A stretch of 33,045 nucleotides of DNA from a virus: IMG/VR virus record IMGVR_UViG_3300045988_036764, positions 1-33,045 of that record; one strand, given 5' to 3'. Both the position numbers and the translations under genes were made by a program. The notes under the pieces are model-generated. The model saw only the letters and a program-made list of their open reading frames with translations, was not told where the DNA came from and did not search any database. Position 1 is the stretch's first letter; the number at the start of each line of letters is the position of its first letter. This document shows positions 861 to 30,526 of this stretch, one piece after another.

Positions 861-1197
861 AAAATCATATCAATCTGTAAGGGTGGCCAACATCCACCCA
901 ACAGGTGTATTAGCGACGAGGGTACTAGTATTAGTTATGCTAGTACCTATTTTATTGGTGATTACTCAATATATCATGGCTTTTATTAGTGGTTATGTAT
1001 CAGACGAAGCCAATAAGATAATTAGCGTTGGTATTAATATCATAGATCATATCTTTATTCCGTCTGTGTTAACTGCATTAGTAGGGTTCTTAGCATTGTG
1101 GATAGATAAAGACGGAAATGGAATACCAGACAAATTAGAGGAACAACCCAAAATACCACCATTACCAAACATTACAGAAAGGAGTGATAAGAAGTGA
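826..1197 (+). CDS. Putative holin (2-3 predicted TM segments)
   Basis: Hydrophobic segments VLVLVMLVPILLVITQYIMAFISGYV and IFIPSVLTALVGFLALWI, with a charged C-terminal tail. Its stop overlaps the endolysin start (GTGA). The true start may be internal, because the first 35 nt overlap the previous ORF. Confidence 0.5.
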   Translation: MNIPPKLINTVKKSYQSVRVANIHPTGVLATRVLVLVMLVPILLVITQYIMAFISGYVSDEANKIISVGINIIDHIFIPSVLTALVGFLALWIDKDGNGIPDKLEEQPKIPPLPNITERSDKK

Positions 1198-1817
1198 GAA
1201 AAGGATTTGATATTTCAGCGTGGCAAGAAGATTATAACGGCAATCCTTATTTTAATCTTGAACGAATGGAACAGGCTAAAGCAGAAGGCAATGAATTTGT
1301 CATTATTAAGCTAGGTGAAGCGTATAATGTGGATGAATATTTTGAAGAACATATGACTGCAGCATTAGAAGCAGGCTTGGAAGTAGGTGTGTATTACTTT
1401 AGCCATGCATATACAGAAGCTACAGCAGTACAAGAAGCAGAATGGGTAATCAATACATTAAATGCATATGGTTATACTGATTGGCATCTACAAGCTGGCA
1501 TTTGGTATGACTATGAAGAACACACTCAACTACGTGCATATATTAATGCTGGCGCACTTACATCTCAAGATATGACTAACTGCATGAGTAGATTTGTAAA
1601 TAGATTATGGCAAGCAGGATTTAATAATGTAGGCATCTATAGTGGATATTCCTTATTATGGGATGAAACATATGCATATAGTCAGATGCCAAGCGTTCCT
1701 ATATGGTGCGCACAATATGGCGCAACAGAATGTGATTATCCAGATGTTAAGATTTGGCAATACAGTGACAGTGGATATGTAGCAGGGGCAGAAGTAGATG
1801 TTAATTATATGTATTAG
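1194..1817 (+). CDS. Endolysin, glycoside hydrolase family 25 muramidase (single domain)
   Basis: The sequence GFDISAWQ...FVIIKLGE...VGVYYFSHA...WYDYEE...GIYSGYSLLW...PIWCAQYG...KIWQYSDSG..VDVN matches the GH25 lysozyme pattern. SD AGGAG lies upstream of a GTG start. Confidence 0.9.
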   Translation: MRKGFDISAWQEDYNGNPYFNLERMEQAKAEGNEFVIIKLGEAYNVDEYFEEHMTAALEAGLEVGVYYFSHAYTEATAVQEAEWVINTLNAYGYTDWHLQAGIWYDYEEHTQLRAYINAGALTSQDMTNCMSRFVNRLWQAGFNNVGIYSGYSLLWDETYAYSQMPSVPIWCAQYGATECDYPDVKIWQYSDSGYVAGAEVDVNYMY

Positions 1818-2643: not shown

Positions 2644-2682
2644 GAAAAAAGCCACTGCACATGATGCGGTGGCTCATTTTTT
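2644..2682. terminator. Bidirectional intrinsic terminator (end of int; end of the rightward lysis transcript)
   Basis: A 10-bp stem AGCCACTGCA / TGCGGTGGCT (2650-2674) with loop CATGA. An A-run lies upstream and TTTTTT downstream. Confidence 0.75.
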
Positions 2683-3844
2683 ATTTATTTGCAAGTACTT
2701 TACCCATATTAGTAATTGCTGCATTTACTTCTTGTTTCATTTCATCGGTTACATGAGTATATATAGCAAGTGTAGTACGTGGCTCATTATGGCCCACACG
2801 TTCCATAATTGCTTTTAAAGGCACATTGGACTCTGCAAGAATAGATATATGAGTATGTCTGAATGTATGTGTGCTTACAGGTTTGTGAAAGTCAAGTTTT
2901 TTTATAATTCGATTAACATAATGTAGATCATATGGTAATCCACCATCAGTAACAAAGATATATCCTAAATCAGCAAACTTAGATTTCCATAATCGTCTTG
3001 CTTGATTAGCAGTAATAAAATGATTAATGATTTGTACTGCCCTAGCATCTAACTTTACCCTGCGGATAGAATGAACATTCTTTGGGGAAAGGCGCATAGC
3101 AGGGTCTGAAAAACTACCACGAGTAGACAAAGTAGCGTTTATATCAATCTCTGCATTTTCTCTATCATAGTCTTGAGTGCGCAATGCTACCATTTCACCA
3201 AATCTAAGACCAGTTAAAGATTGAAATTCACATAATAGAGATACATGATGATTAATAGTATCTAATTGTGTAAGTAAATCTTTTAGTTCATCTTTAGTAA
3301 GGAATTTAGAACGCTGTTTCTTGATGCGGTTAACATCTGCTACAGGCTTTTGGAGTTCTATATTATCTAAAAATGAAATGTCACGGATATACTCCATGCG
3401 CCTTGCATACTTCAATGATTGTCTAATTAGGCTAAGAGCAAGCTTAGTATAGTTATATGAATATTGGCAAGCGAATTTATCAAAGGTACTTTGGATAATA
3501 TAAGGAGATAACTTAGATAATAATATATCAGTAGGGAACCATTTAATAACTTGCTTATGTAAATTATCCATACTATATTGAGTAGATGATTTTCTAAACG
3601 CACGCTTTGACTCTAAATATTCAGATACAACATCATTCAATGTCATATCTTTGGCAATATCTGTATTAGTGGCCAAGTCAATTTTCTTTTGTAATTCAGC
3701 CTGCGCAAGCTTGTATGCTTGTCTACTATTAGAAGTATATGTAACAGATACTCTTTTTGTTTTACCACTATATGTATCTGTATAGCGTTCTTGAAATTTA
3801 TATTTAGTAATACCAGCTTTAGTGGTTATCGTTTCAACCCACAT
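2681..3844 (-). CDS. int: Tyrosine recombinase / phage integrase
   Basis: 387 aa. N-terminal SAM-like region. Catalytic region ...LTGLRFGEMVAL...HTFRHTHISILAESNVPLKAIMERVGHNEPRTTLAIYTHVT carries the R...HxxR...Y signature. SD AGGAGG lies upstream. Confidence 0.95.
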   Translation of the reverse strand: MWVETITTKAGITKYKFQERYTDTYSGKTKRVSVTYTSNSRQAYKLAQAELQKKIDLATNTDIAKDMTLNDVVSEYLESKRAFRKSSTQYSMDNLHKQVIKWFPTDILLSKLSPYIIQSTFDKFACQYSYNYTKLALSLIRQSLKYARRMEYIRDISFLDNIELQKPVADVNRIKKQRSKFLTKDELKDLLTQLDTINHHVSLLCEFQSLTGLRFGEMVALRTQDYDRENAEIDINATLSTRGSFSDPAMRLSPKNVHSIRRVKLDARAVQIINHFITANQARRLWKSKFADLGYIFVTDGGLPYDLHYVNRIIKKLDFHKPVSTHTFRHTHISILAESNVPLKAIMERVGHNEPRTTLAIYTHVTDEMKQEVNAAITNMGKVLANK

Positions 3845-3850
3845 TAAAAA

Positions 3851-3937
3851 ATACCTCCTAGGCTAAAAATGGTATAAGAAATAAGCCTTAGAGGTATGAT
3901 ATAATAATGGTGGAGTAAAAATGAAATACCTCTAAGG
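3851..3937 (-). promoter_or_regulatory. int leader with mutually exclusive pairings around the Shine-Dalgarno
   Basis: On the int mRNA there are three segments. A = CCUUAGAGGUAU (3937->3926). B = AUACCUCUAAGG (3897->3886). C = CCUAGGAGGUAU, the int SD (3862->3851). A:B pair 12/12. B:C pair 10/12, covering GAGGUAU. Confidence 0.4.
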
Positions 3938-3983
3938 TATGTAGTTTTTAGTGGCCCTCACTGCGGTGGGGGCTTATTTTTTT
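3912..3983 (+). ncRNA. Candidate ~70-nt antisense sRNA between immA-like gene and int
   Basis: An extended -10 TGaTATAAT (3897-3905) on the + strand is followed about 50 nt later by a + strand-specific terminator (3953-3983). Both flanking genes are on the - strand. The RNA would carry AUACCUCUAAGG (3926-3937). Confidence 0.3.
3953..3983 (+). terminator. Intrinsic terminator oriented on the + strand inside a minus-strand gene block
   Basis: Stem GCCCTCAC / GTGGGGGC (8 bp with one G-U pair), loop TGCG, followed by TTATTTTTTT. There is no U-run in the minus orientation. Confidence 0.6.
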
Positions 3984-3989
3984 ATGTAA

Positions 3990-4256
3990 TTAAAGCACAT
4001 GATGATAGAAATCTATTTCTTCAAGTAATTCATCTGTAAGTTCTTTTCGTCTTACCATGTGTTCAATTAAATTAACATGATGATCTATGTGAAAATCATC
4101 ATTAATGATATGCAGCAATTCATGCTTTACTTCGTTACGCATATCTTCAAAAGACATATTCTTGCGAATATAAATATTGTGTACACCTTCATCTTCCCCA
4201 ACAGATGCCACAGCTTTAACATTAGGAATATCACACTCAATAATATTAACAACCAC
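3990..4256 (-). CDS. ImmA/IrrE-family-like zinc metallopeptidase (short), putative anti-repressor protease
   Basis: HExxH motif within EVKHELLHIIND. It lies directly downstream of the XRE repressor and upstream of int, the same order as immR-immA-int modules. Confidence 0.7.
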   Translation of the reverse strand: MVVNIIECDIPNVKAVASVGEDEGVHNIYIRKNMSFEDMRNEVKHELLHIINDDFHIDHHVNLIEHMVRRKELTDELLEEIDFYHHVL

Positions 4257-4280
4257 TCTCTAACATCCCCCATTACAAGT

Positions 4281-4667
4281 TTATTTGTGTTTTAGTTTGA
4301 GTAATTCTATATATTCTACAGCTTTTTCCATATCCTCCTTAGAGATACCACGAGATGCGGAGAATAACATACGCATTTCTGGACGAGTGCGAAGCATTTC
4401 CGCATACTCTGCAGTTTCTGCATCTAAATAATAATTAGTAGATTGCTCATTTGTTGGAATATTCTCATCATAACCAAGTAACCATGCAGGGCTAACATTT
4501 AATGCTTTAGCAATAATATATACTTTATCTTGCTTTGGTTCGTATCGGTCATTTAACCAATCAGAAATGGAGGATTGACGGATACCTGTACGCTTTGCTA
4601 ATTCAGTTTGAGTTATTTTGCGTTCTTTCATGATACTTTTTAAACGATTTATAAAATGAATACTCAT
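4281..4667 (-). CDS. XRE-family HTH repressor (cI/ImmR-like)
   Basis: Helix-turn-helix region ITQTELAKRTGIRQSSISDWLNDRYEPKQDKVYIIAKALNVSPAWLLG. Divergent from the early operon. Has a C-terminal extension. Confidence 0.9.
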   Translation of the reverse strand: MSIHFINRLKSIMKERKITQTELAKRTGIRQSSISDWLNDRYEPKQDKVYIIAKALNVSPAWLLGYDENIPTNEQSTNYYLDAETAEYAEMLRTRPEMRMLFSASRGISKEDMEKAVEYIELLKLKHK

Positions 4668-5879: not shown

Positions 5880-6098
5880 ATGGAAAGTGTTCAACCAAAG
5901 TATGTTCCTATTAGCACACTAGCTAAGATATGGGGACGGAGCAAAATGTATATCTATAGAAGAATAGATATGATCCGCAATGAAGGTAGATTTAATGAAA
6001 TCTGTATGCAACTAGGCCCACAACAAACGCTGGTACATGTAGATAAATTTGAAGCATGGATGAAAGGGCAGCACATGAAGTGGCTAAAGGGGGCATAG
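5880..6098 (+). CDS. Excisionase-like / MerR-type HTH DNA-binding protein
   Basis: Internal ATG after GAAAGGAA. The sequence YVPISTLAKIWGRSKMYIYRRIDMIRNEG resembles excisionase-family HTH proteins. Confidence 0.5.
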   Translation: MESVQPKYVPISTLAKIWGRSKMYIYRRIDMIRNEGRFNEICMQLGPQQTLVHVDKFEAWMKGQHMKWLKGA

Positions 6099-6101
6099 AA
6101 G

Positions 6102-6332
6102 ATGAACATTATAAATCTAATAACAACCGTGCAATGGTGCTTAGGAATATTAGGGTTAGGACTATATGGAGGAATTGAGCAAGCAGAAGGCTGGCAAATA
6201 TTAATCAATATAGTTTTAACAATAACAACTGGCATCACAATTTGGATGTTAGGCAGGGTTAAGGAGGTGATAAAACATGAAAGACAAAAAAGAAAAAGCA
6301 CTAGATTTACTAAAAACATATTTAATGTTTGA
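6102..6332 (+). CDS. Small membrane protein (2 TM)
   Basis: Hydrophobic segments WCLGILGLGLYGGI and ILINIVLTITTGITIWMLG, with a basic C-terminus. Confidence 0.55.
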   Translation: MNIINLITTVQWCLGILGLGLYGGIEQAEGWQILINIVLTITTGITIWMLGRVKEVIKHERQKRKSTRFTKNIFNV

Positions 6333-6564
6333 TGATGAAGAAATGCAGGTGTTAAGGGAACGCATTACATCAATTAGCGTAAGCAATAAAAGCGCAAGTT
6401 TAGACTTTACTATTCTTGCTAATGGATGCGCTATTTTTGTTAAGCGAAAGACAGGGGAATATGTATTACGCATAACAGGTAAAGGCCCAATTAAAGAGAA
6501 CAAAGTATATCTTGCATTAAGGGCAAGAGAAATACTGCTTGATGCGGTGACAAGCAATGAGTAA
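6277..6564 (+). CDS. Hypothetical early protein (95 aa)
   Basis: Strong SD AAGGAGGTG lies 7 nt upstream. No motif recognised. Confidence 0.6.
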   Translation: MKDKKEKALDLLKTYLMFDDEEMQVLRERITSISVSNKSASLDFTILANGCAIFVKRKTGEYVLRITGKGPIKENKVYLALRAREILLDAVTSNE

Positions 6565-6745
6565 AAACCGCAGCAGATGTAGCATATGTGATGCGTGCAA
6601 TAAAAAAAGCCGTGCCTACATACACTGTAGACAGGCTAAAGGAATTATATGTATGGAACATTGCGATGCATGCCAATATTTAGAGATTGAACAAGGCGAC
6701 ATGCATTGCAATTATCCTAGGCAAAAAGAAAAGGCCACTAATTAA
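6557..6745 (+). CDS. Small Cys-rich (zinc-finger-like) protein
   Basis: Cys pairs in CSICDACNKK...CRQ...CMEHCDACQY...HC. Its start overlaps the previous stop. Confidence 0.5.
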   Translation: MSKNRSRCSICDACNKKSRAYIHCRQAKGIICMEHCDACQYLEIEQGDMHCNYPRQKEKATN

Positions 6746-6762
6746 AGTAGCCTAATCAAGCA

Positions 6763-6894
6763 CGTAATTACGCACCAAACCTAACGTAATTATATCACAC
6801 ATGGGCATGAAAGACTAGAGAAAAGCTTATTTCAAGGCTTTTCTTATTAACTAGATATAACATATTAACAAATCAACCATGGGGAGTAATTACG
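6763..6894. promoter_or_regulatory. Candidate replication origin / Rep-binding region
   Basis: Perfect palindrome CGTAATTACG at 6763-6772. Related copies ACGTAATTAT at 6784-6793 and GTAATTACG at 6886-6894, the latter abutting the rep ATG. Hairpin GAAAAGC..GCTTTTC at about 6820-6843. Confidence 0.35.
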
Positions 6895-7692
6895 ATGAGG
6901 AAGCGTAAGAAGGTCATATCTAAAAACATGATAGAGGTACTTGATTATCACACATCAAGAACTTATAGAAAGAATGGGAAGCGTGTAAAAAAGAAAAACA
7001 TCACACCAGAAGCCGTGAAAAAGCAAAATGAAAAACAAGCGGAAGCAATGCTGCGTATGTTGATTGATAATAACTTCACTACAAATGATTGTTACATCAC
7101 ACTCACATATAAAGAACAGCCTGCAACATGGGACGATGCAAAGAAAGATATTCAGAATTTTATAAGACGGCTTAAACGTAGATATAAAAAACTGGATAAA
7201 GAATTGAAATACATTTACATAGCGGAAGGGAAAACAAGAATACATTTCCACATGATCATCAACAATGCAGAACTATATTCAGATGAGTTGAATGAACTTT
7301 GGCCACATGGCATGCATAAGTTGATGTTGTATCAAGGAAGGGCAGAAGATGCAGTGAGATTAGCAAGCTACTTTGTAAAAGAAAAACGGAGTGCATGTTA
7401 TTCAGATAAAGAGGATGCATTTAAGCGCAGGTGGAACAGTAGCAAGAATTTAGAAAAACCAAAAGTAAAAACAGAAATATTGAAGCCAAGCGAATGGAGA
7501 GATTACATCCAACCGCCAAAAGGCTATTACGTGGAAACAGACAGTGTAGTTGAAGATGTATCTGATGAAGGTTATCCTTATAGATTTTACAGATTAATAA
7601 GAATTGAGGAGGTAAAACATGGCACTACTAGGAATAGGAGTTGTAGTAGGGGTAATGCTAGGGGTATCAATCATGGCATTATGCGTAATTAG
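6895..7692 (+). CDS. HUH-superfamily rolling-circle replication initiator (Rep)
   Basis: Three ordered motifs with about 45-aa spacing. Motif I is CYITLTY. Motif II is RIHFHMIIN (H-hydrophobic-H). Motif III is LASYFVKEK (Y-x-x-K). Confidence 0.7.
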   Translation: MRKRKKVISKNMIEVLDYHTSRTYRKNGKRVKKKNITPEAVKKQNEKQAEAMLRMLIDNNFTTNDCYITLTYKEQPATWDDAKKDIQNFIRRLKRRYKKLDKELKYIYIAEGKTRIHFHMIINNAELYSDELNELWPHGMHKLMLYQGRAEDAVRLASYFVKEKRSACYSDKEDAFKRRWNSSKNLEKPKVKTEILKPSEWRDYIQPPKGYYVETDSVVEDVSDEGYPYRFYRLIRIEEVKHGTTRNRSCSRGNARGINHGIMRN

Positions 7693-7741
7693 TAAAGAAT
7701 GTGAGAAATGGGAGGATGAAGTAAGTGATAAACGTAAATGA
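7619..7741 (+). CDS. Small single-TM protein (40 aa), not in the ORF track
   Basis: ATG lies 6 nt after GAGGAGG. Translation: MALLGIGVVVGVMLGVSIMALCVISKECEKWEDEVSDKRK. It overlaps the rep 3' end and the ssb start. Confidence 0.5.
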   Translation: MALLGIGVVVGVMLGVSIMALCVISKECEKWEDEVSDKRK

Positions 7742-8093
7742 AGTATTTTTGAGCGGTAACGTAGTAGCAGATGCAGAACTACGATACACAAAAACTGGAA
7801 AGCCAGTACTTACATTTAGAATGGCAACAAATAAATATGTGAATGAGCAACAGAGTACACAATATCACAACATTGTATGCTGGGTTGATGCGGAAAAATA
7901 CAGTGGATTAAAGAAAGGTGATTTTGTATCAGTAAATGGTGAACTAAGAACTAGATCATATGAAAAAGACGGAGGGAAAAGATACATTACAGAGATTGTG
8001 GCCAAAGTCCTTACATATGGATTGAAAGAAAATGAAAGTACATCAAATTTTGAAAATGGGTTTGTAGACGATGATGAGCCCATTCCATTCTAG
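7725..8093 (+). CDS. ssb: Single-stranded DNA-binding protein
   Basis: OB-fold start INVNEVFLSGNVVADAELRYTKTGKPVLTFRMA, plus the hallmark acidic tail DDDEPIPF. GTG start follows GGGAGGA. Confidence 0.9.
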   Translation: MINVNEVFLSGNVVADAELRYTKTGKPVLTFRMATNKYVNEQQSTQYHNIVCWVDAEKYSGLKKGDFVSVNGELRTRSYEKDGGKRYITEIVAKVLTYGLKENESTSNFENGFVDDDEPIPF

Positions 8094-8103
8094 GAGGTAA
8101 TAA

Positions 8104-8310
8104 ATGCGAAGAGGTAGACCAAGAAAGATATGTAGCCACTCATTTGGGCCAGCAAAAAGCGGTGCGCTATGGGTAAAAACATCATGCCCCAAAGGGAAAA
8201 CATCAATTAAAGTATTCAAAGGCAAAACAGCAGGCACTTTATATTGGCTGAAAAAAGAAGAATGTGAAGATTGCCCTGCATATAGTCCTACAAAGGTTTA
8301 TGCAAAATAG
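8104..8310 (+). CDS. Small basic protein (RGRPRK AT-hook-like N-terminus)
   Basis: SD AGGAGGT lies upstream. Translation begins MRRGRPRKIC... and contains 4 Cys. Confidence 0.55.
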   Translation: MRRGRPRKICSHSFGPAKSGALWVKTSCPKGKTSIKVFKGKTAGTLYWLKKEECEDCPAYSPTKVYAK

Positions 8311-8321
8311 GAGGGAACAAC

Positions 8322-8585
8322 ATGAAAAGCACAAGCATGGCAGGTGTACCGATGAATTGCATAAATTGGCTGGCACTAGGTGCGGTAGTATACGGTGCAA
8401 TGGATAAGCGAAATGCATTAAAAGTATTGGGATTAAAGGAACAAATAAATGCAGATGTGTTACAGCCATTGATTGACAGAGGACTAAGCCAAAGAAAAAT
8501 AGCAGAAGAATTAGAAGCAAGTCAAAGCTTGATTAAAAATATTTGTAAAAAATTAGGAATTAAAACAAAACGAGGTAGAAAATAA
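8322..8585 (+). CDS. HTH DNA-binding protein
   Basis: C-terminal HTH GLSQRKIAEELEASQSLIKNICKKLGI followed by a basic tail. Its stop overlaps the ATG of the adhesin gene (TAATG). Confidence 0.6.
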   Translation: MKSTSMAGVPMNCINWLALGAVVYGAMDKRNALKVLGLKEQINADVLQPLIDRGLSQRKIAEELEASQSLIKNICKKLGIKTKRGRK

Positions 8586-10072
8586 TGAAAAAAGTAATGT
8601 TAGCAGTAATGGTATTAAGCGCAGTAGTTAATGGTGCATATGCAAATGGAACAAATAATTTAGTAGGTGGTACAGATAACACAATCACACCAGCATCTCA
8701 TAGTAGTGCAGTATTTGGTTATCAAAATAAAATTGATGCTAATAACGCAATTGCATTCGGTGAAAACAACGTGGCAAGCGGTACTAATTCCTTTGTAGGT
8801 GGTAATGATAGCAAGGCAACAGGTCGCAACTCCTTTGCATATGGTAGCCATGCAGAAGCGTTGACTGAATACACGTATGCAATTGGTAGCCAAGCTAGAA
8901 CATCAGCATATGACACTATTGCAATTGGCAATGGCGCATATGTAAGTGGTGTATCTAGCGTTGCAATTGGGCGCACAAACAATATCACTGGTGAAAATAC
9001 AGTGGTTGTAGGTGCTAATAACAAAGACATTAAAGGCAATCAATCAACTGTGATTGGCTACAATAACAAAATGGCTGGTGATATGGAACAAACTATCATT
9101 GGCGCAAATTCTGAAACTGCAGGACAGGGCTCTATGGCCATTGGGACACATACAAAGGTTACTGCAATTGATGCGGTAGGCATTGGCAATAATATTGTGG
9201 CGGATAAGCCAAATAGTGTTGCATTAGGAACAAACAGTGTAACAGACAATGCAGTTAATCAACTACAAGCAATGGTAAACAATACAACATATGTATTTGC
9301 TGGTACAGATGCAACATCTGTAGTAAGCGTAGGCAGTAAACAACGTGCAGGCTTTGGTGGAGTAAAAAATTATGTTCGCCAAGTACAGAATGTTGCAGCA
9401 GGCAGAGTAGATGCATCTTCAACTGATGCAGTAAATGGTTCACAGCTACATGCTGCATATGATGCCATTAATACAATGGGTGAAGATATTGATAAAGCAC
9501 TAGATGCACAACAACAATTCAATACTGCAGTACATAACACACTAGCAAATCATAAGGATGCAATCAAAAATAATACACAACACATTGCACAACATGATGC
9601 GGACATTGCAAATAATAAAAATGCTATTAAGGCTAATGATCGTGTATTGAAAAATCATGAAGAGCGCATTGATAAGTTAGAGCATCAAGCAAGCAATACA
9701 TTAACAAATTTAAAATCAGACATTAAGCAATTAGACGGACGAATTAATAAAGTGGGTGCAAGTGCAGCTGCATTAGCTGGACTACATCCAATGGAATTTA
9801 ACAAAGATGATAAATTTAGCACATCTGTAGCATATGGTCACTATAAAAATGCCAATGCAGTGGCACTAGGTGCATACTACAGACCAAATGAAAAAGTATT
9901 ACTTGGCATTGCAGGTACATTTGGCAGTGAAAACATGTACAACGTAAGCGCATCTTTCAAATTTGGCAAACATAGTGAATATGAACCACAAGCGAAACGT
10001 GACGGAGAAATTGAAGCTATGAAAGCACAAATTGCAGAATTAACAGCAAGACTTGATGCGGTAAGCAAATAA
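8585..10072 (+). CDS. Trimeric autotransporter adhesin (YadA-like, type Vc)
   Basis: Signal peptide MKKVMLAVMVLSAVVNGAYA. About 200 aa of Hep_Hag-type head repeats (NSFVGGNDSKATGRNSFAYGSHAEA, SVAIGRTNNITGENTVVVGANN...). Neck motif VVSVGS...RQVQNVAAGRVDASSTDAVNGSQLHA. Coiled-coil stalk. YadA-type anchor GASAAALAGLHP...AVALGAYYRPNEKVLLGIAGTFG...NVSASFKFG. A roughly 30-aa coiled-coil tail follows the anchor. Confidence 0.9.
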   Translation: MKKVMLAVMVLSAVVNGAYANGTNNLVGGTDNTITPASHSSAVFGYQNKIDANNAIAFGENNVASGTNSFVGGNDSKATGRNSFAYGSHAEALTEYTYAIGSQARTSAYDTIAIGNGAYVSGVSSVAIGRTNNITGENTVVVGANNKDIKGNQSTVIGYNNKMAGDMEQTIIGANSETAGQGSMAIGTHTKVTAIDAVGIGNNIVADKPNSVALGTNSVTDNAVNQLQAMVNNTTYVFAGTDATSVVSVGSKQRAGFGGVKNYVRQVQNVAAGRVDASSTDAVNGSQLHAAYDAINTMGEDIDKALDAQQQFNTAVHNTLANHKDAIKNNTQHIAQHDADIANNKNAIKANDRVLKNHEERIDKLEHQASNTLTNLKSDIKQLDGRINKVGASAAALAGLHPMEFNKDDKFSTSVAYGHYKNANAVALGAYYRPNEKVLLGIAGTFGSENMYNVSASFKFGKHSEYEPQAKRDGEIEAMKAQIAELTARLDAVSK

Positions 10073-10079
10073 AATAGGT

Positions 10080-10096
10080 GGGCGGTATATCCGCCC
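10080..10096 (+). terminator. GC-rich hairpin after the adhesin gene (weak U-tract)
   Basis: GGGCGG-tatat-CCGCCC lies 8 nt after the stop codon and is followed by TTACC. Confidence 0.45.
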
Positions 10097-10121
10097 TTAC
10101 CTAAAACTAGGGGGCAAAGTT

Positions 10122-10895
10122 ATGAACCATGTAACAACACTATTTAATAGTAATGAGTTTGGGGAACTAAGAACTATCATTATTGAAAATGAAGTGTACT
10201 TTGTGGCCAAGAGCGTAGCAACTGCACTTGGATATAAAGATACTGCAGATGCAATCAGAAAACATATTGATGAAGAAGATAAGCTGCGTTGGCAAATTGC
10301 CGACACAGGCCAAAAGAGGGAGACATATTTAATCAATGAGTCTGGACTATATTCATTGATATTGAAATCAAAGATGCCAAGTGCGAAGAAATTTAAACGC
10401 TGGGTAACTAGCGAAGTACTTCCACAAATTAGAAAAACAGGAAGCTATGATCTACATATTCCAAAGACATTACCAGAAGCATTGAGATTGTATGCAGATG
10501 AAGTAGAAGCACATAACCAATCAAAGGCAATTATTGAGCAACAGAAACAACAAATAGCGGAATATGAGCCAAAGGTTGACTATGTGGATAAAATACTAAG
10601 CAGTACAAATGCAATGACAGTAACACAGATTGCTGCAGACTATGGATTAAGTGCTAAAGCATTAAACAAGATACTACATGATGCACACATTCAACGCAGC
10701 GTAAATGGGCAATGGATTTTGTATAGTGACTTAATGCGTAAGGGATACACAAAGACTAAGACACACACATATATGACTACAGACGGAAGATTGGAGTGCA
10801 AAGCATCTACACGCTGGACACAAAAAGGAAGATTGATGATACACGAGTTACTAAAGAAGCTGGGCATCAATGCAGTGTGTGAGGAGGTAGCATGA
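10122..10895 (+). CDS. Phage antirepressor, Bro-N domain + KilAC domain
   Basis: Bro-N region: FGELRTIIIENEVYFVAKSVATALGYKDTADAIRKHIDEEDK...ESGLYSLILKSKMPSAKKFKRWVTSEVLPQIRKTG. KilAC-like region: VDYVDKILSSTNAMTVTQIAADYGLSAKALNKIL. Confidence 0.9.
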   Translation: MNHVTTLFNSNEFGELRTIIIENEVYFVAKSVATALGYKDTADAIRKHIDEEDKLRWQIADTGQKRETYLINESGLYSLILKSKMPSAKKFKRWVTSEVLPQIRKTGSYDLHIPKTLPEALRLYADEVEAHNQSKAIIEQQKQQIAEYEPKVDYVDKILSSTNAMTVTQIAADYGLSAKALNKILHDAHIQRSVNGQWILYSDLMRKGYTKTKTHTYMTTDGRLECKASTRWTQKGRLMIHELLKKLGINAVCEEVA

Positions 10896-11311
10896 AGCCA
10901 TTAGTATATAAAGGCCTAAGAAAGAACTTAAACAGGTCAGAATGGGTAAGCAGTGATGAAATAAAGCAAAGCTACTCACAAATAAGGCTATTAGCAGTAG
11001 AAAATGACACCTATGCATGGGTACCAATTGAGGACGGAACACTATGCAGAGGAAGCGAAGCAAAAGACACGCTAGGGAAAAGAATATACGAAAAGGACCA
11101 TATAGAGTTTGATTGCAAATCAATACAAGATACACCAATGGTAGGGGAAGTATATTACAGCGTGGATAAATACCAATGGAGATGCAAGGCAATTAACCAG
11201 CAGGACACAACACAACATGATGCGGTATTAGATTTTGACTTAGCATTTGTATTGAACAATGGGAAAGTAAAAGTAATAGGCAATAGATTAGAGGGATATG
11301 AGCATGAATGA
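10892..11311 (+). CDS. YopX-like protein
   Basis: LGKRIYEKDHIEF...MVGEVYY...VKVIGNRLEGYE resembles the YopX pattern (GK.IYEGD...G.V......IGNI.EN.EL). Confidence 0.5.
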   Translation: MKPLVYKGLRKNLNRSEWVSSDEIKQSYSQIRLLAVENDTYAWVPIEDGTLCRGSEAKDTLGKRIYEKDHIEFDCKSIQDTPMVGEVYYSVDKYQWRCKAINQQDTTQHDAVLDFDLAFVLNNGKVKVIGNRLEGYEHE

Positions 11312-11528
11312 CAGATATAGAAATGTATGCAAAGCACATGATCATATTGTAAAAGGGCGCTCAAAAGAAGTTAGAAAAGTGTTCATCCCACATTGGGGTT
11401 ATGTATTCATATCATCTGATGCATTGATAAAGGCAAGAATAAGAAGAGATGAATTAAAGGAAAACAAAGCATTTAATCAATGGGCGAGGAGTTATTATGA
11501 AACCACCATGCAGGGAGTGCCAATTTAG
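11298..11528 (+). CDS. Hypothetical protein (76 aa)
   Basis: ORF in operon context. No motif recognised. Confidence 0.5.
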   Translation: MSMNDRYRNVCKAHDHIVKGRSKEVRKVFIPHWGYVFISSDALIKARIRRDELKENKAFNQWARSYYETTMQGVPI

Positions 11529-11706
11529 AGAAGTAGGATGCCACAGTAAATGTGAAAGCTATATTCAATGGAGAGCGCAACTAGATAAATATAACGAACA
11601 GAAGAACATGCAAGGAGATGCCTATAAATATATTGGGGATAACGTAAGAACCATTAGGCACAGAATGAGAAAGATAAAAGGATATAGCTGCACTGTGAGG
11701 GATTAA
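11497..11706 (+). CDS. Small Cys-rich protein
   Basis: PCRECQFREVGCHSKCESY (CxxC...CxxxC). SD GAGGAG lies upstream. Confidence 0.55.
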   Translation: MKPPCRECQFREVGCHSKCESYIQWRAQLDKYNEQKNMQGDAYKYIGDNVRTIRHRMRKIKGYSCTVRD

Positions 11707-11709
11707 GAA

Positions 11710-12057
11710 ATGAAGTTAGATTTATGGGTAAGGCTAAATATAACAATGGCTGATGATAGCAAGGTAAGTGGCTGGACACAGATATATGGAAAACATGAGT
11801 TAGCCATGTATAAAAAACCTTTCAAAGAATTAAAGCCTATTGTAAGTGATCACATAGAAAAAATGAACTGGCTAACTATTTGTAATAGGCGGTACGAAAC
11901 AAACCAAGTAATAGAAATTAATACAAGCAAGATAAAGCGGTATGTAATAAAAGAGTGCGTGCAACCATGTGAAAATAACGAAGAATGGGAATATGCTAGG
12001 AAATGGTACAGAGAATATAAACAAAAAGAACGTGAAAACGTTCAGAAAATAAGCTAG
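11710..12057 (+). CDS. Hypothetical protein (115 aa)
   Basis: SD GAGGGA lies upstream. No motif recognised. Confidence 0.55.
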   Translation: MKLDLWVRLNITMADDSKVSGWTQIYGKHELAMYKKPFKELKPIVSDHIEKMNWLTICNRRYETNQVIEINTSKIKRYVIKECVQPCENNEEWEYARKWYREYKQKERENVQKIS

Positions 12058-12859: not shown

Positions 12860-13202
12860 AAACCAATTAATTTATGTAGCGCATCCATATGCAGGAAAGG
12901 AAGCTAATAAGTATTCCATTGATACAATTATGGAAAACTTAGTAATGCTAGATAAGAACAACACATATCTATCACCTCTTCACAATTTCAGTATGTTGTA
13001 CTTTGATACACAGTATTCAAAAGGCTTAAAAATATGTTTAGACATGTTAAATAAATGTGATGCATTAGTATTATGTGGTGAATGGGAAACATCTAAAGGC
13101 TGCATTGGTGAATGGTCATTTGCAATAGCAAAAGGGATACCAATATATACATGGAAAGAATGGACAGATAAATTAAAGGAACAGGGAGATAATAGCCGAT
13201 GA
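12852..13202 (+). CDS. Nucleoside 2-deoxyribosyltransferase-like protein (DUF4406/DUF1937-like)
   Basis: The pattern IYVAHPYAG......SPLH......CLDMLNKCDALVLCGEWETSKGCIGEWSFAIAKGIPIY fits that fold family. Confidence 0.45.
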   Translation: MIKNQLIYVAHPYAGKEANKYSIDTIMENLVMLDKNNTYLSPLHNFSMLYFDTQYSKGLKICLDMLNKCDALVLCGEWETSKGCIGEWSFAIAKGIPIYTWKEWTDKLKEQGDNSR

Positions 13203-13624
13203 CAGGAAGGGAATATTTAAATCAGATACGTGATACTGATTTGAATATCAAATGTAAGGAAAGAGAAGTGTTAAGGCTGCAACAAGATATAATGTATCTA
13301 CAAGCACTAGACTACAGTAAAGACATTGTAAGCGGAGGGCAACCAATCACATTTGAAGATAAGATAGCAAACATTGATGCACTATCAAATGAACTAATGA
13401 GGGAGTGGAGCGGTTACCTAAGAGAAAGGGAAAGAGCAAGATTTCTTATTAATGCAATATCTAGTGCCAAGCAAAAGGCGGTACTGATTGATAGATACAT
13501 TAATTGTTACACATGGGAAAAGGTAGCAGAATTAATAGGGTGTTCGGTGCAAAACATTCACAATCTGCATAAGCGTGCAATTAGAAATTTTGAAGTAATT
13601 TTTAAAAAGGTTGATAGTATTTGA
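13199..13624 (+). CDS. Sigma-70 region-4-like late gene regulator (DUF1492 / RinA-ArpU-type)
   Basis: C-terminal HTH QKAVLIDRYINCYTWEKVAELIGCSVQNIHNLHKRAIRNF. It is the last early gene before the packaging module. Confidence 0.7.
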   Translation: MTGREYLNQIRDTDLNIKCKEREVLRLQQDIMYLQALDYSKDIVSGGQPITFEDKIANIDALSNELMREWSGYLRERERARFLINAISSAKQKAVLIDRYINCYTWEKVAELIGCSVQNIHNLHKRAIRNFEVIFKKVDSI

Positions 13625-25875: not shown

Positions 25876-26538
25876 ATGAGCTTTCAAGACAACGCTAAAA
25901 GCATAATGAAGCAACGCTTAATGACGAAACAAGCGGACTTGCAAAAGTTAGCGGTAACTCGTGCTACTAAGTTTGCTGATAAAATTTCACATGGTCTAGT
26001 CGGTAAGATTTTAGATTATGCCGAACGAAAACCAACTACAGATATTGTATTTCACTCTGAATTAACAGATGAATACATTACATTGCCTGTAGTACCTAAC
26101 CCTTTACCTACGATTAGTGAGCCACAATCTAACGAAACATTTAATGGTCTTAGGGGCGATATTAAACTCATAGGGCCTTTAGGACTGCGAACACTAACAC
26201 TAGATAATATCTTGTTACCGATTAATAAGGATTACTCATTTATTCGTGGTAATGGTAGCGATGGACTACAATGCTTGCAATTCTTTCAAGCACAACGGCA
26301 GATGAAAGCCGTGATGCGGATATGTATTATTCAATCTGATGGGAATGAAATCCTTAATATGCCATGTGTCATTAATGATCTATCTTACACATATGATAAG
26401 GTTGGAGATATTAAGGCAACAATAGGCATTGAAGAGTATGTATATACTAATACATCAACTACGGCTCAATCTTCGACTGGTGGCGAAAATAAGGCTACAG
26501 ATACAAAAGCTACTGATAGTAAGGCGGTTAAGAAATGA
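25876..26538 (+). CDS. Tail/baseplate protein (position of XkdP; no LysM seen)
   Basis: 220-aa ORF with SD GGGGGTG, located between the tape-measure and XkdQ-like genes. Confidence 0.45.
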   Translation: MSFQDNAKSIMKQRLMTKQADLQKLAVTRATKFADKISHGLVGKILDYAERKPTTDIVFHSELTDEYITLPVVPNPLPTISEPQSNETFNGLRGDIKLIGPLGLRTLTLDNILLPINKDYSFIRGNGSDGLQCLQFFQAQRQMKAVMRICIIQSDGNEILNMPCVINDLSYTYDKVGDIKATIGIEEYVYTNTSTTAQSSTGGENKATDTKATDSKAVKK

Positions 26539-28019
26539 AGTTACAGTATACGAACACAACTAAAGGAAAAGATGGTAAAGATGTTACTGAAACACGTGAA
26601 ATTACTGCCTACACAAATAACTATCAAAGGTCAGATGGTATTGATACATTAGGTCAAGAATTTACCTTTGATTTAGCAGATAACCCTTTTGATTTTAATC
26701 TTATGGGTACACGGCTTGCGATTGGTGGCAAGATTGAGTTTAGTAACCAACTAAGCAATAATAACAAGAGTGCTACAACAAAGCTGAACGAAGAGCAACA
26801 AGAACAAGTTATATTCCAAGGCATCGTGGTAGCAGAGAAACAAAGCGGTGCTAACAAATATAGTTACACTTGCTTTGATTACTGCTTTTATCTCAACAAA
26901 TCAGAGATAGAAATTCAATTCAATGGTGTTAGTGGCCTTGAAGCTATTAAAAAGGTGTGTAGTGAGAACAACGTGCCTTTGGGTAATGTGGCTGATATTA
27001 AGACGAATATCAAGAAGATATATCAAGGTGAAACAGTATCAGATGTTATCAAGGATATTATCAAGCAAGCCACAGAAGAAACTGGCTATAAATACCGCTT
27101 AGAATACAGAGATGGCAAGGTACACGTTGAGGACTACAAAGATTTAGTGCTAGATAAGGTTATCACTCAACCTATCAATAATTACTCAAGAGATTTAAGT
27201 ATGGAAGATATGCGTAATAGCATCGTGGCTATATCTCAAAAAGAAAAGAGTACATCGGTTAAGTCAACTATTCAAGATGATGAAAGCATCAAGAAATATG
27301 GCTTAATCAAGAAGATTGTTAAGGTTGATGATAAGAAGCAAGCACAGACCGCTCAAATTGCTAAAAAGACAATTCAAGATACAAATAAGGTAGCTGAAAA
27401 GTTAAACCTAACATTATTAGGTGATGATACAGTAAGGAGTGGTCGCATTATTATAATTGATGATTACACAGTGGACATACACGATAAATTCATAGTAGAA
27501 AACTGCAAACATAATTATGGAGTTAACCATACTATGACATTAGATCTAAAACGTGTAACTAAAGAACTTGATACAAGCAAGTATAAAACAAGCACTACTA
27601 AAACTGTTACACCAAATGCAACGAATAGTACTGCTAATGCAACACAGGTTGATGCTGGTATGAACGCACTCAACGGATATGAAAGCGTATATCGTGATAA
27701 TGGGTGCGTTGATGTGGCAGTTAAGGCTGGTTCATATTACAGTCCATTCTTAAAGCAACAAGCTGATATGGGTGTAGCAGATGTACCAACATTAGTTGGT
27801 AATGCACAAAACGCTGGATATAAAGTAGAAGCCTTTGATGGTTATGCTAAGAAAGGCGATATTCTTGTATATGGGAATAATCAACATGTTATTATTTCCG
27901 ATGGTGCTGGCGGTGGTTTTGGTAATAGTAGCAGTAAAGGTCATGCAATGTTTTATTCTGATGCTAATAACGCATGGCACACGAACGAAGCACCATCTAA
28001 AGTAATTAGAATGTCATAG
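26535..28019 (+). CDS. XkdQ-like baseplate hub protein with C-terminal Cys/His peptidase-like domain
   Basis: The N-terminal roughly 330 aa resemble the XkdQ/late control D-like family (IFQGIVVAEKQSG..YSYTCFDYCFYLNKSE). The C-terminal roughly 130 aa read ...YRDNGCVDVAVKAGSYY...AKKGDILVYGNNQHVIISDG..., i.e. papain-fold-like. Confidence 0.6.
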   Translation: MKLQYTNTTKGKDGKDVTETREITAYTNNYQRSDGIDTLGQEFTFDLADNPFDFNLMGTRLAIGGKIEFSNQLSNNNKSATTKLNEEQQEQVIFQGIVVAEKQSGANKYSYTCFDYCFYLNKSEIEIQFNGVSGLEAIKKVCSENNVPLGNVADIKTNIKKIYQGETVSDVIKDIIKQATEETGYKYRLEYRDGKVHVEDYKDLVLDKVITQPINNYSRDLSMEDMRNSIVAISQKEKSTSVKSTIQDDESIKKYGLIKKIVKVDDKKQAQTAQIAKKTIQDTNKVAEKLNLTLLGDDTVRSGRIIIIDDYTVDIHDKFIVENCKHNYGVNHTMTLDLKRVTKELDTSKYKTSTTKTVTPNATNSTANATQVDAGMNALNGYESVYRDNGCVDVAVKAGSYYSPFLKQQADMGVADVPTLVGNAQNAGYKVEAFDGYAKKGDILVYGNNQHVIISDGAGGGFGNSSSKGHAMFYSDANNAWHTNEAPSKVIRMS

Positions 28020-28027
28020 GGGGATAT

Positions 28028-28405
28028 ATGGAAGAGTGGCATAGTCAAATGGCATCTATGTTCAAAGAGCGAACTAACCCTATACGGATAGGTGCTTGTT
28101 TAGGTGAGGTTATCAGTACTTCACCGTGGAAGGTAGCTATTAGAGATGGTAAGTTTTTGATAGATGCATCTAATGGTTATGTATGCTTTCAATTAATTCA
28201 CCATATCACTACATACTCTTATCGACATAGTGGACAAATGACACATAAAGGGTGTCCTGCTGGCCCTAAATCTGATTACGATGCACAGGGTGAGGGTAAG
28301 ATAGTGCTTAATGAATTATGGAAAGCTGGCGATAAAGTACTTGTTATTCCAGATGAAAACGAACAACATTTCTTTATCGTTGATATAGTTAAGGAAGGTG
28401 TGTAA
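28028..28405 (+). CDS. XkdR-like baseplate protein (DUF2577-like)
   Basis: The sequence MFKERTNPIRIGACLGEVISTSPWKVAIRDGKFLID, together with gene order. Confidence 0.6.
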   Translation: MEEWHSQMASMFKERTNPIRIGACLGEVISTSPWKVAIRDGKFLIDASNGYVCFQLIHHITTYSYRHSGQMTHKGCPAGPKSDYDAQGEGKIVLNELWKAGDKVLVIPDENEQHFFIVDIVKEGV

Positions 28406-28842
28406 TGTTTCCTACAGATTACAACTTCACTAATTCCATTCAATCTACTAAAACGGCTACAAACGCACAACACAAGGTGGGGCGGTCATTTAAATTCGAC
28501 TATAAGACACATCGTTTTGTATTTGAAGATGGCCGCAATGTAGAAGATACGCAGATTGAAGCAATTAAACAATGGATTGAGTTATTTATTCGGACTGAAA
28601 TGAAGAAATACTTAATCTATAGTGATAGCTTTGGGTTGGATCTAACTAAGCTATTAGGGTACAGATTGCCACGAGCATATAAAGTATCTGAAATAAAAAG
28701 GAGAATAACCGAAGGTATCATGAACAAAGTACCATGTGTTGTAGTTGTCAAAGATTGGCAATTCAATGCTGGTATTTTTTATTTCACAGTAGTTACTAAT
28801 ACAGGGGAAGAGGTGAAGATAGAACATGAATTCGAATTATAG
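28405..28842 (+). CDS. XkdS-like baseplate wedge protein (DUF2634 / gp25-like)
   Basis: The sequence GRSFKFDYKTHRFVFEDGRNVEDTQIEAIKQWIELFIRTE, together with gene order. Confidence 0.6.
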   Translation: MFPTDYNFTNSIQSTKTATNAQHKVGRSFKFDYKTHRFVFEDGRNVEDTQIEAIKQWIELFIRTEMKKYLIYSDSFGLDLTKLLGYRLPRAYKVSEIKRRITEGIMNKVPCVVVVKDWQFNAGIFYFTVVTNTGEEVKIEHEFEL

Positions 28843-29905
28843 TGTTGATAGCATCCATAATACGATGCTTGAAAACATTGACGATGCGTATCAGAAAACC
28901 GAAGGCTTTCCAACGTATGACATAACAAGAGGTGAAGCATTTGCTTTACTCGAACTGTGGAAGAAGGCGGAAGAAATTGAACGCAAACAAAATGTGGATA
29001 ACTTAACAGGTGATGAACTAACAAGGGTAGTGTTCCAACGCAAAGGAACGCAACGAAAGTTAGCAACTAAGGCAGTATGTAACTTGCGTATTGTTGATGG
29101 TAACGGCACTATCCACGAGGGCGATTTATTCGAAAGTGAAAGCGGTATTCAATATGAGTCGCTAGAAAACAAGGATGTAGTAAATAACTCTATCATCAAA
29201 ATAAGATGCACTAAAGCTGGTGCAGTTGGTAATGTTCCTAAAGGCACAATAACCCAAATGCCTATTACTATTGCTGGTATCAATGCAGTAATCAATGATG
29301 ATGCTGCCAAAGGTGGAGAAGATGAGGAAGCGGATGATGATTTGCGTGAACGCTACTATGAAGAGTTAAGAGAACCAGCTACGAGTGGCAATGATTACCA
29401 TTATAAGCAATGGGCCAAAGAGGTAGAAGGTGTAGGTGAAGCTAATGTAATAGGCTTATGGAATGGTAACAATACTGTTAAGGTAGTTATCATCAATTCT
29501 GATAGAAAGGCAGCAAGTACCGATTTAGTTAAGCGTGTACAAGATTACATAGACCCAGATAGTAAAGGTATAGGCGATGGACAAGCACCTATAGGGGCAC
29601 ATTGTACTGTTGTTAGTGCTACAGAGGTGCCTATCAATATTGATGTAAGAGGTGTACAACACACTACATCTGCTACTAAATCTACTATTACAAATGACAT
29701 TACCGAAGCCGTAACTGCTTACCTAAAGAAGATAGCCTTTAAACAAAACTATGTATCAGTTGCACAGATTAGTAACATTATCATTGATAATGCTGGTGTT
29801 ACTGACTATGAAAGTGTAACTGTAAATGGACAGACAACTAAAATTAATCTAACAAATGAACAAGTTGCCGTATTAGGTACAGTTAGCGTGGCTTTAAATG
29901 ACTAA
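28826..29905 (+). CDS. Baseplate J-like protein (XkdT-like)
   Basis: 359 aa. The sequence ...LTRVVFQRKGTQRKLATKAVCNLRIVDGNGTIHEGDLFESESGIQYES...DDLRERYYEEL fits the Baseplate_J pattern. Confidence 0.8.
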   Translation: MNSNYSVDSIHNTMLENIDDAYQKTEGFPTYDITRGEAFALLELWKKAEEIERKQNVDNLTGDELTRVVFQRKGTQRKLATKAVCNLRIVDGNGTIHEGDLFESESGIQYESLENKDVVNNSIIKIRCTKAGAVGNVPKGTITQMPITIAGINAVINDDAAKGGEDEEADDDLRERYYEELREPATSGNDYHYKQWAKEVEGVGEANVIGLWNGNNTVKVVIINSDRKAASTDLVKRVQDYIDPDSKGIGDGQAPIGAHCTVVSATEVPINIDVRGVQHTTSATKSTITNDITEAVTAYLKKIAFKQNYVSVAQISNIIIDNAGVTDYESVTVNGQTTKINLTNEQVAVLGTVSVALND

Positions 29906-30515: not shown

Positions 30516-30526
30516 GGGGGTATATA

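Follow-up and report, generated by a model that had tools for sequence, protein, structure and literature searches.

Trimeric autotransporter adhesins (TAAs) of the genus Veillonella are known from V. parvula, in which VtaA, VtaE and VtaF share the order signal peptide, YadA heads, neck, stalk, anchor and short coiled coil; these proteins are ~3,000 aa long and chromosomal, encoded in or near an adhesin cluster. Here we analyzed a TAA gene carried by a Veillonella phage, in the IMG/VR virus record IMGVR_UViG_3300045988_036764 (33,045 nt; this whole stretch is referred to below as the window). Its product has the same order of parts as the three Vta proteins, but only 495 aa. We consider it fairly probable that this gene encodes a functional type Vc TAA of the Negativicutes kind, which forms an optional promoterless cassette of widespread temperate Veillonella phages, is expressed early and alters cell binding. 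VtaB (~469 aa), whose gene lies in the chromosomal adhesin cluster, is a short V. parvula TAA that possibly belongs with these three and was reported to be co-induced with a prophage (PMC11633186), and, according to a review, yadA homologues have been seen in oral viromes (PMC4393417). No account of the phage genes described here was retrieved when the literature was searched for Veillonella and prophage along with autotransporter, adhesin or YadA, and two papers on Veillonella TAAs make no mention of phages (PMC7549365; bioRxiv 10.64898/2026.01.22.700529).

Prophage-borne TAAs are represented by the Eib proteins of E. coli (P-EibC and P-EibD), which have ~500 aa, like the phage TAA, and whose genes are accessory cargo followed by a stem-loop. 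An earlier note on this DNA had cited them as a precedent, and a tblastn search of 50,697 deposited phage records indeed gave near-full-length matches to EibC and EibD only (26-27% identity, E 5e-7 to 5e-6). This similarity amounts to general TAA homology and not to close kinship with Eib. The eibC gene stands alone between stem-loops, whereas the Veillonella phage gene overlaps a gene of the early operon and has no conserved promoter; the Eib host is a proteobacterium and that of the phage TAA a diderm Firmicute. To our knowledge, Eib proteins lack a post-anchor domain. Phage morons, which are accessory genes located between conserved genes of a phage, such as lom and bor of phage lambda, show a similar presence/absence polymorphism, base-sharp edges and an outer-membrane product. 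A moron of the textbook type comes with a promoter and a terminator of its own, and the prophage expresses it; in contrast, no conserved promoter accompanies the phage TAA gene, and its hairpin lacks a U-tract and is specific for one backbone. What goes beyond the Eib precedent is the promoterless early-operon arrangement, the recurrence in four early-region contexts and a head that is better conserved than the anchor.

The best solved relative of the phage TAA is CbpF of Fusobacterium nucleatum (9gh4 and 9u93; 489 aa; E 2e-17), a CEACAM1-binding protein of similar architecture, and the alignment with CbpF runs past the anchor into the C-terminal extension (PMC12012533). However, the alignment of the heads is weak and patchy, CbpF is chromosomal, and no ligand of the phage TAA can be inferred from it.

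Domain architecture of the phage-encoded adhesin

Three Pfam profiles matched the protein above their curated cut-offs: YadA_head (formerly Hep_Hag; E 1.5e-13, 51.1 bits, cut-off 25), YadA_stalk at aa 266-303, which include the VQNVAAGRVDASSTDAVNGSQL neck (E 2e-8, 34.9 bits, cut-off 28.4), and YadA_anchor (PF03895) at aa 406-460 (E 1.8e-10, 41.2 bits, cut-off 22.7). By inspection, the N-terminus (MKKVMLAVMVLSAVVNGAYA/NG) had the n/h/c layout of a Sec signal peptide, with MKK, 12 hydrophobic residues and AYA/N; the signal peptide (aa 1-20) has no extended signal peptide region. This signal peptide was kept in 70 of 71 distinct phage alleles. All relatives detected in PDB were TAAs, including CbpF (9gh4, E 2e-17; this structure is the F. 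nucleatum protein, PMC12012533), BpaA (4usx), UspA1, BpaC, Hia and YadA. The anchor aligned to those of YadA (2lme), Hia (3emo/2gr7) and CbpF, and aa 192-301 aligned to the head/neck of BpaA (4usx); we take the connector and neck in this region to be GIN-like. Partial similarity to EmaA, YadA, BimA and Ata was observed in NCBIfam, with all scores far under the exception-level cut-offs, and the protein is therefore none of these four adhesins. Thus, the type Vc adhesin that the earlier note had described was recovered by the head, stalk and anchor profiles, the Sec-type signal peptide and homology to TAAs of solved structure. Given the domain evidence and what is known of the family, both the molecular identity as a type Vc TAA and the export route are very likely, and the protein is predicted from family membership to be an obligate homotrimer with adhesive activity on the outer membrane.

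An AlphaFold2 (AF2) model of the monomer (mean pLDDT, predicted local distance difference test score, 61) showed a helix at residues 2-15, a beta-roll at 24-215 (pLDDT 74-88), a single helix at 285-394, four strands (411-420, 423-432, 438-446 and 455-460) and a helix at 470-494. The pLDDT of the strands was low (25-40) because a single chain of an obligate trimer was modelled.

After the last barrel strand (...NVSASFKF) the chain continues for ~33-35 residues (GK-HSEYEP...VSK). In this tail (HSEYEPQAKRDGEIEAMKAQIAELTARLDAVSK), I-M-I-L-L-V occupy the a/d positions of one heptad register, and residues 470-494 are the C-terminal helix of the AF2 model (pLDDT 61-80). No SLH or OmpA Pfam match was found in the TAA. 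A tail of 30-40 aa was present in all 71 distinct phage alleles; the tails belong to several unrelated sequence families, and the heptad pattern is kept. Among Negativicutes TAAs, 99.8% proved in a recent survey to possess a periplasmic domain, and a short class of this domain, <100 residues long and mainly coiled coil, was distinguished (Dorison et al. 2026, bioRxiv 10.64898/2026.01.22.700529); the tail of the phage TAA fits this class. Such a near-universal occurrence makes a tail expected and unremarkable here, and the statement in the earlier note that Veillonella TAAs carry a post-anchor domain was correct and is now general (PMC7549365; bioRxiv 10.64898/2026.01.22.700529). VtaA, VtaE or VtaF from which the coiled-coil periplasmic domain had been removed were degraded and lost function (bioRxiv 10.64898/2026.01.22.700529), and by analogy with these proteins the tail may have a role in the stability of the phage TAA.

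An optional cassette in the early region of Veillonella phages

Related loci were collected from IMG/VR in two sets (loci are designated L plus a number below), one anchored on the neighboring antirepressor gene, which is unbiased for the TAA, and one anchored on the TAA itself. Presence and absence were counted in 58 distinct antirepressor-anchored loci that also retained the gene for single-stranded DNA-binding protein (SSB). The TAA gene was present in 29 of them (11 of the 493/495-aa class and 18 of the 427/431-aa class) and absent from the other 29, of which 11 had only a 60%-identical gene for a helix-turn-helix (HTH)-like protein and 18 had neither gene. In these loci Rep, SSB and antirepressor were 89-100% identical to those of the window. 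What is missing from the HTH-only phages, base-exactly, is the TAA open reading frame (ORF) with the hairpin behind it; a larger unit is missing from the phages that lack both genes (Table 1). In L026 (1472-1560), and similarly in L035, L037-L039 and L043, the TAA is gone and the last ~23 nt of the gene are kept together with a degenerate hairpin region, a 3' scar that indicates secondary loss rather than primary absence. The 427/431-aa class differs only at window 8649-9085 (head aa 22-167), which is replaced by 233 nt. The TAA is an accessory, moron-like optional cassette, which consists of a ribosome-binding site (RBS), the ORF and, in this backbone, the hairpin, with no conserved promoter. 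The earlier note had held that the gene is not in a typical moron position; its location in the early/replication region was confirmed, yet the gene is moron-like cargo, found in half of the close relatives.

Only ~25-35 nt with the RBS are conserved upstream of the TAA (140 nt aligned, 25 distinct alleles of this backbone family), and homology to L093 begins at window 8555. The start codon overlaps the stop of an upstream 87-aa ORF (TAATG), with GAGG 9 nt upstream, and an overlap of 1 or 4 nt with the upstream stop was seen in 31 of 32 intact alleles of the 427-495-aa classes. A promoter-like TTGACA-16-AAAAAT at 8473-8500 was considered as a dedicated promoter and rejected, being altered in many TAA-positive relatives; a promoter scan gave 8 sites versus 18.8 in shuffles. 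Consensus scanning and the upstream alignment thus yielded no promoter of the gene's own of the kind that a moron has, only the conserved RBS region and a start that overlaps the upstream gene. The 87-aa ORF occurs in at least three divergent versions (~95%, 60% and 39% identity), with or without the TAA. In relatives it is missing along with the TAA (L040 type), occurs in the 60%-identical version in phages that lack the TAA (L018 type) or has other genes in its place, and the TAAs of other backbones occur without it; this ORF is a variable partner of the TAA. In the predicted protein, a hydrophobic N-terminal stretch (NCINWLALGAVVYGAM) precedes the HTH-like segment. The placement in the early/replication region and the overlap that the earlier note had read as translational coupling were both found, while its upstream HTH gene corresponds to weak, sub-threshold matches only.

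The stem-loop that follows the gene has 6 G-C pairs (approximately -17.5 kcal/mol with its extension; local fold z-score -1.2). Within this backbone family the stem-loop follows each TAA in unchanged form, in a spacer of 49-54 nt, and it is missing from the TAA-less L018 and L040 and after the TAAs of other backbones. On the + strand it is followed by TTACCTAAAAC, with no U-run. An intrinsic terminator of the + strand was rejected, since the T-run lies on the minus-strand side and the z-score is low in magnitude as given above. The G+C-rich hairpin of the earlier note is therefore a real stem-loop, but neither a canonical + strand terminator nor a constant companion of TAAs in other backbones.

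Homologous TAAs were detected on the early strand in four early-region contexts, and in the representative loci examined in full the gene was located on this strand downstream of a divergent CI-like repressor. In a second backbone, with genes for a DUF2800/PD-(D/E)XK nuclease, a family-A polymerase and an Enc34-type SSB, the gene for the 447-aa TAA is separated from its upstream neighbor by 2-5 nt and overlaps the downstream one by 4 nt, and the hairpin is missing. TAAs of 474-539 aa make up a third group, which includes L139, with PcfJ, an AAA ATPase and RecT, and L146, with a distant Rep downstream of the TAA; the leader is 72-89 nt long in this group and 36 nt in L139. All ten aligned leaders of this group (L004, L119, L126, L129, L131, L133, L137, L138, L145 and L146; L139 was not aligned) contained two conserved stem-loops within the ~86 nt that precede the TAA, GTCCGCT...AGCGGAC and GGTAGAGT...ACTCTACC, the second being followed by TGTATTGT. 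In the first stem-loop, the stem changes of L145 (GCCTACC...GGTAGGC) were fully compensatory, and in L119 the stem was unchanged and only the loop differed. These stem-loops may be an attenuator or leader that controls TAA expression in the 474-537-aa group. Cargo also occurs in a second variable slot, which separates integrase from repressor and has the orientation of the repressor: Fic was present there in L001 (4083-5231) and L147 (3751-4899) and Abi_2 in L149 (1954-3081), and the window has nothing at this site (3845-4280). No TAA was found in this slot in the loci where the region was examined.

The gene was intact in 70 of the 71 distinct alleles. The exception is L007 (4068-5264), in which a 5' truncation leaves a TAA of 398 aa devoid of a signal peptide; the S68 and HTH genes are likewise missing from this phage, and the allele is probably a pseudogene or deletion derivative. 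Nei-Gojobori dN/dS values were 0.02-0.09 in every domain in three allele classes (pS 0.09-0.25). Within allele classes the head gave dN/dS values of 0.03-0.09, which led us to reject diversifying selection on it; variation of the head instead arises through segment replacement. Compared with the window, the 474-539-aa alleles are 76-83% identical in the head and only 20-60% in signal peptide, stalk, anchor and tail, whereas the 447-aa class is 91% identical in the neck, 90% in the anchor, 39% in the stalk and 27% in the tail. The lowest column entropy across phage alleles, that is, the most conserved stretch, was at aa 201-300 (connector and neck), and the stalk was the most variable segment between backbones (23-40% identity). 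The gene is thus maintained by selection and modular, a mosaic between backbones. The nearest relatives in a 50%-identity representative library were short TAAs (370-650 aa, 50-71% identity); giant TAAs in the same library (2,000-4,900 aa) have repeated modules that match the head/neck of the query at 33-43%.

Phage genome, host and a polar octamer

The window is a complete temperate contractile-tailed phage of ~33 kb. Its first 48 nt (1-48) recur at 32998-33045, and this terminal direct overlap indicates a circular assembly of a complete phage genome of ~32,997 bp. The lysis module is joined to attP and integrase, as in an excised form. In addition to the features in Table 1, the window encodes large terminase, portal, capsid, sheath and tape measure proteins. 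Integrase, repressor, terminase, portal, capsid, sheath, tape measure, baseplate and fibre were all found, which bears out that the adhesin is encoded by a phage. The nearest relatives of the terminase were in Lactobacillus delbrueckii phages (54% identity), and those of the sheath in Fusobacterium phiHugo (41%) and Clostridium/Clostridioides myophages (30-34%); the packaging and tail proteins are thus nearest to those of Lactobacillus, Clostridium, Clostridioides and Fusobacterium phages, in agreement with the Firmicute-type modules of the earlier note. No match was obtained in a megablast search of window 6000-12000 against deposited phages, so that no close annotated relative at the DNA level exists among them.

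TAA copies 62-95% identical to that of the window were found in Veillonella dispar and in uncultured Veillonella genome bins, and an integrated copy of the phage (L001) was located inside a 110-kb contig, with homology that starts at window 2454. Because of the close copies in Veillonella genome bins, the host is assigned to Veillonella, a diderm Firmicute, as the earlier note had expected. In L001 (697-2480), the prophage abuts the 3' end of an apparent tRNA gene (...GGTTCAAGTCCCTCCAACCGCACCA), and the core CCGCACCATT is common to L001 and window ~2462-2471. An inverse-autotransporter beta-domain gene (PF11924) is nearby, with the prophage edge ~0.5 kb downstream of it. Since the chromosomal adhesin cluster of V. 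parvula SKV38 contains a PF11924 gene next to vtaB, the phage may integrate beside that cluster. Another ORF, over the circular junction (1-100 and 32946-33045; frame 3 of the first bases), has collagen-like Gly-X-Y triplets (GPQGPKGEP...GPKGDKGE); it comes directly after the tail-fibre genes and probably encodes a collagen-like fibre protein.

Table 1. Coordinates of the adhesin gene, its cassette and other features of the window
Feature	Position	Strand	Basis or remark
TAA gene	8585..10072	+	495 aa
Signal peptide	8585..8644	+	aa 1-20, MKKVMLAVMVLSAVVNGAYA; inspection, AF2 helix 2-15, kept in intact alleles
Head, YadA-like beta-roll repeats	8645..9229	+	aa 21-215; Pfam YadA_head, AF2 beta-roll
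Connector and neck	9230..9484	+	aa 216-300, ...VNNTTYVFAG...VQNVAAGRVDASSTDAVNGSQLHAAY; Pfam YadA_stalk, BpaA alignment
Coiled-coil stalk	9485..9784	+	aa 301-400; AF2 helix, coiled-coil family matches
Outer-membrane beta-barrel anchor	9785..9970	+	aa 401-462; four strands per monomer
Post-anchor coiled-coil domain, predicted periplasmic	9971..10069	+	aa 463-495; heptad register, AF2 helix, CbpF alignment
87-aa ORF, HTH-like C-terminal segment (LSQRKIAEELEASQSLIKNICKKLGI)	8322..8585	+	weak, sub-threshold HTH matches (Pfam; PHROGs)
Left edge of mobile unit	8555..8584	+	~25-35 nt with Shine-Dalgarno GAGG 8572-8575
G+C-rich stem-loop GGGCGG-TATAT-CCGCCC (GGGCGGTATATCCGCCC)	10080..10096	+	right cassette edge
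Insertion/deletion unit relative to HTH-only phages	8583..10102		blastn breakpoints 8582/10103 against L018/L016
Larger unit missing from phages with neither gene	8321-10107		blastn breakpoints 8320/10108 against L040
TGATGCGG at right-hand cassette junction	10054..10061	+	alignment A1
TGATGCGG sites	2662, 3322, 6540, 7886, 9169, 9595, 10054, 11218, 12793, 13743, 14905, 16437, 18478, 22277, 26312, 30050, 32013	+	
GH25 endolysin	1194-1817		precedes attP and integrase
Tyrosine integrase	2681-3844	-	
CI-like repressor	4281-4667	-	
Rolling-circle-type Rep	6895-7692		
SSB	7725-8093		
Bro-N/KilAC antirepressor	10122-10895		
ArpU/sigma-r4-like regulator	13199-13624		
Fibre and baseplate genes	26535-31474		

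The octamer TGATGCGG had been listed in the earlier note as a three-copy motif of the adhesin gene. It proved to be the commonest 8-mer in the window, all of its 17 copies being on the + strand (0.48 expected), and as a feature of the TAA gene it was rejected, being genome-wide and polar. The three copies in the gene (9169, 9595 and 10054) compare with 0.77 expected from the density in the window (P = 0.043, marginal). Because one of the sites falls within the integrase gene, which is on the minus strand, the polarity is that of the genome rather than of the gene strand. In other Veillonella phage backbones the strand counts were 52:0, 46:15 and 31:7. The copy at the right-hand cassette junction is found at the same place in the TAA-less L040 and L018 (...TTGATGCGG followed by the RBS-ATG of the antirepressor), and the octamer may mark a recombination joint. 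Chi sites of Bacillus and Staphylococcus end in GCGG, as does TGATGCGG, which is a candidate Chi-like or other polar motif. The strict polarity makes it less likely that the octamer is a DNA-uptake sequence, and a search of the literature for it gave unrelated primers and sequences only.

Expression and possible roles of the adhesin

In the scheme that we favor, that of an early-expressed adhesin acting on cell binding, the Sec system would export the protein through its 20-residue signal peptide, as is known for the family. Three copies, each contributing four beta-strands, would form a 12-stranded outer-membrane barrel inserted by the beta-barrel assembly machinery (BAM), through which the compact YadA-like beta-roll head, the neck and the ~100-residue coiled-coil stalk would pass to form a short surface "lollipop"; the 33-residue C-terminal coiled coil would remain in the periplasm and, as in VtaA, VtaE and VtaF, would shield the protein from degradation. 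The gene would be transcribed along with the early replication genes (Rep and SSB), after infection or when the prophage is induced, rather than from a promoter active in lysogeny. Early co-transcription is the simplest reading because the cassette brings only its own RBS and overlaps the upstream gene; judged from gene architecture, expression with the early operon on infection or induction has about even chances. The displayed head would then alter what the infected or induced cell binds, be it other cells, host ligands or surfaces, and the phage probably affects the adhesion targets of infected or lysogenic cells; the earlier note had proposed that aggregation or biofilm formation could be altered.

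Several points weigh against this scheme. The AF2 model is that of a monomer with low confidence in neck and anchor, and a Foldseek search of this monomer against PDB gave nothing with E < 0.7; a monomer model is ill-suited to a fold search for an interleaved trimer, and we therefore relied on sequence profiles. A non-consensus promoter may exist, or leaky read-through may occur in lysogens, and the invariant hairpin could mark an independently regulated unit.

These last points bear on lysogenic conversion, in which uninduced lysogens would produce the adhesin, through low read-through or from an internal promoter that escaped recognition, to the benefit of the bacterium, as for Eib; the proposed benefits include aggregation, co-aggregation, host-ligand binding and serum/immunoglobulin interactions. 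Prophage TAAs do exist (EibC and EibD, with eibC a stand-alone gene bracketed by stem-loops), the gene described here is optional cargo under purifying selection with an invariant stem-loop after it in this backbone, and Veillonella TAAs mediate aggregation, co-aggregation and surface binding (PMC7549365). However, the sole promoter candidate (8473-8500) is not conserved and the start overlaps an upstream early gene, other backbones pack the TAA tightly with no hairpin (2-5-nt gap, 4-nt overlap), and the slot oriented for lysogeny beside the repressor is used by Fic and Abi_2, with no TAA in the loci examined. We regard lysogenic conversion as possible but doubtful. The cassette lies promoterless in the early operon, it recurs in four early-region contexts and its head is conserved; these features support a different function, one that serves the phage early on, after infection or induction, e.g., by covering or occupying the cell surface and so blocking superinfection or the adsorption of progeny to the dying cell, or by tethering infected to uninfected cells, in which released phage would find new hosts. 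Across backbones the head is 76-83% identical and the signal peptide, stalk, anchor and tail only 20-60%, a pattern which suggests that a single binding specificity is under selection and passes from phage to phage. Early envelope proteins that block receptors are known, T5 Llp being an early-expressed example. On the other hand, half of the closest relatives lack the TAA, which is therefore not required for the lytic cycle, and no TAA is known in exclusion. Such a function is rather unlikely in our estimate, and so, to the same degree, is the wider proposal that the TAA is an early lytic product and not a conversion factor, a promoterless head-neck-anchor cassette traded among unrelated Veillonella phages and always in the early operon. 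If the protein did serve the phage, its conserved head might, again quite tentatively, act in the exclusion of further phage or in tethering to fresh hosts, and thereby in spread within dense oral biofilm.

YadA-like repeats occur in some phage fibres, and a PHROGs family annotated "tail / adhesin" (phrog_17426) matched the neck-to-anchor part weakly (E 1.6e-4), so we considered whether the protein might be a tail fibre or receptor-binding protein of the virion that uses YadA-like head repeats. We rejected this identity, as the match is outweighed by the signal peptide and by an anchor that scores over the Pfam cut-off; moreover, the gene is among replication genes 5 kb upstream of the terminase, the phage has fibre and baseplate genes of its own, and the TAA is absent from half of the near-identical phages. 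A virion role is thus very improbable. Equally improbable is a decaying host-derived passenger gene with no current function. The 5'-truncated L007 allele and the 3' scar of L026-type phages show that the gene can be lost, but 70 of 71 alleles are intact, dN/dS is 0.02-0.09 and the gene is maintained in several backbones, so that decay is, in effect, ruled out by the selection data.

Veillonella, a human commensal, is an abundant bridging organism of oral and gut biofilms, and its Vta TAAs drive aggregation, co-aggregation and surface binding. Within the papers that could be searched, the adhesin and phage literatures on this genus have so far been unconnected. V. parvula is genetically tractable, and tools to detect and assay Vta adhesins exist. 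The promoterless layout in the early operon raises the question of whether the adhesin is displayed during infection for the phage's own benefit. Should a very common temperate phage family indeed supply approximately one in two of its lysogens or infected cells with an additional, compact adhesin whose head is conserved, carriage of the phage would determine adhesion in Veillonella at the level of the strain.

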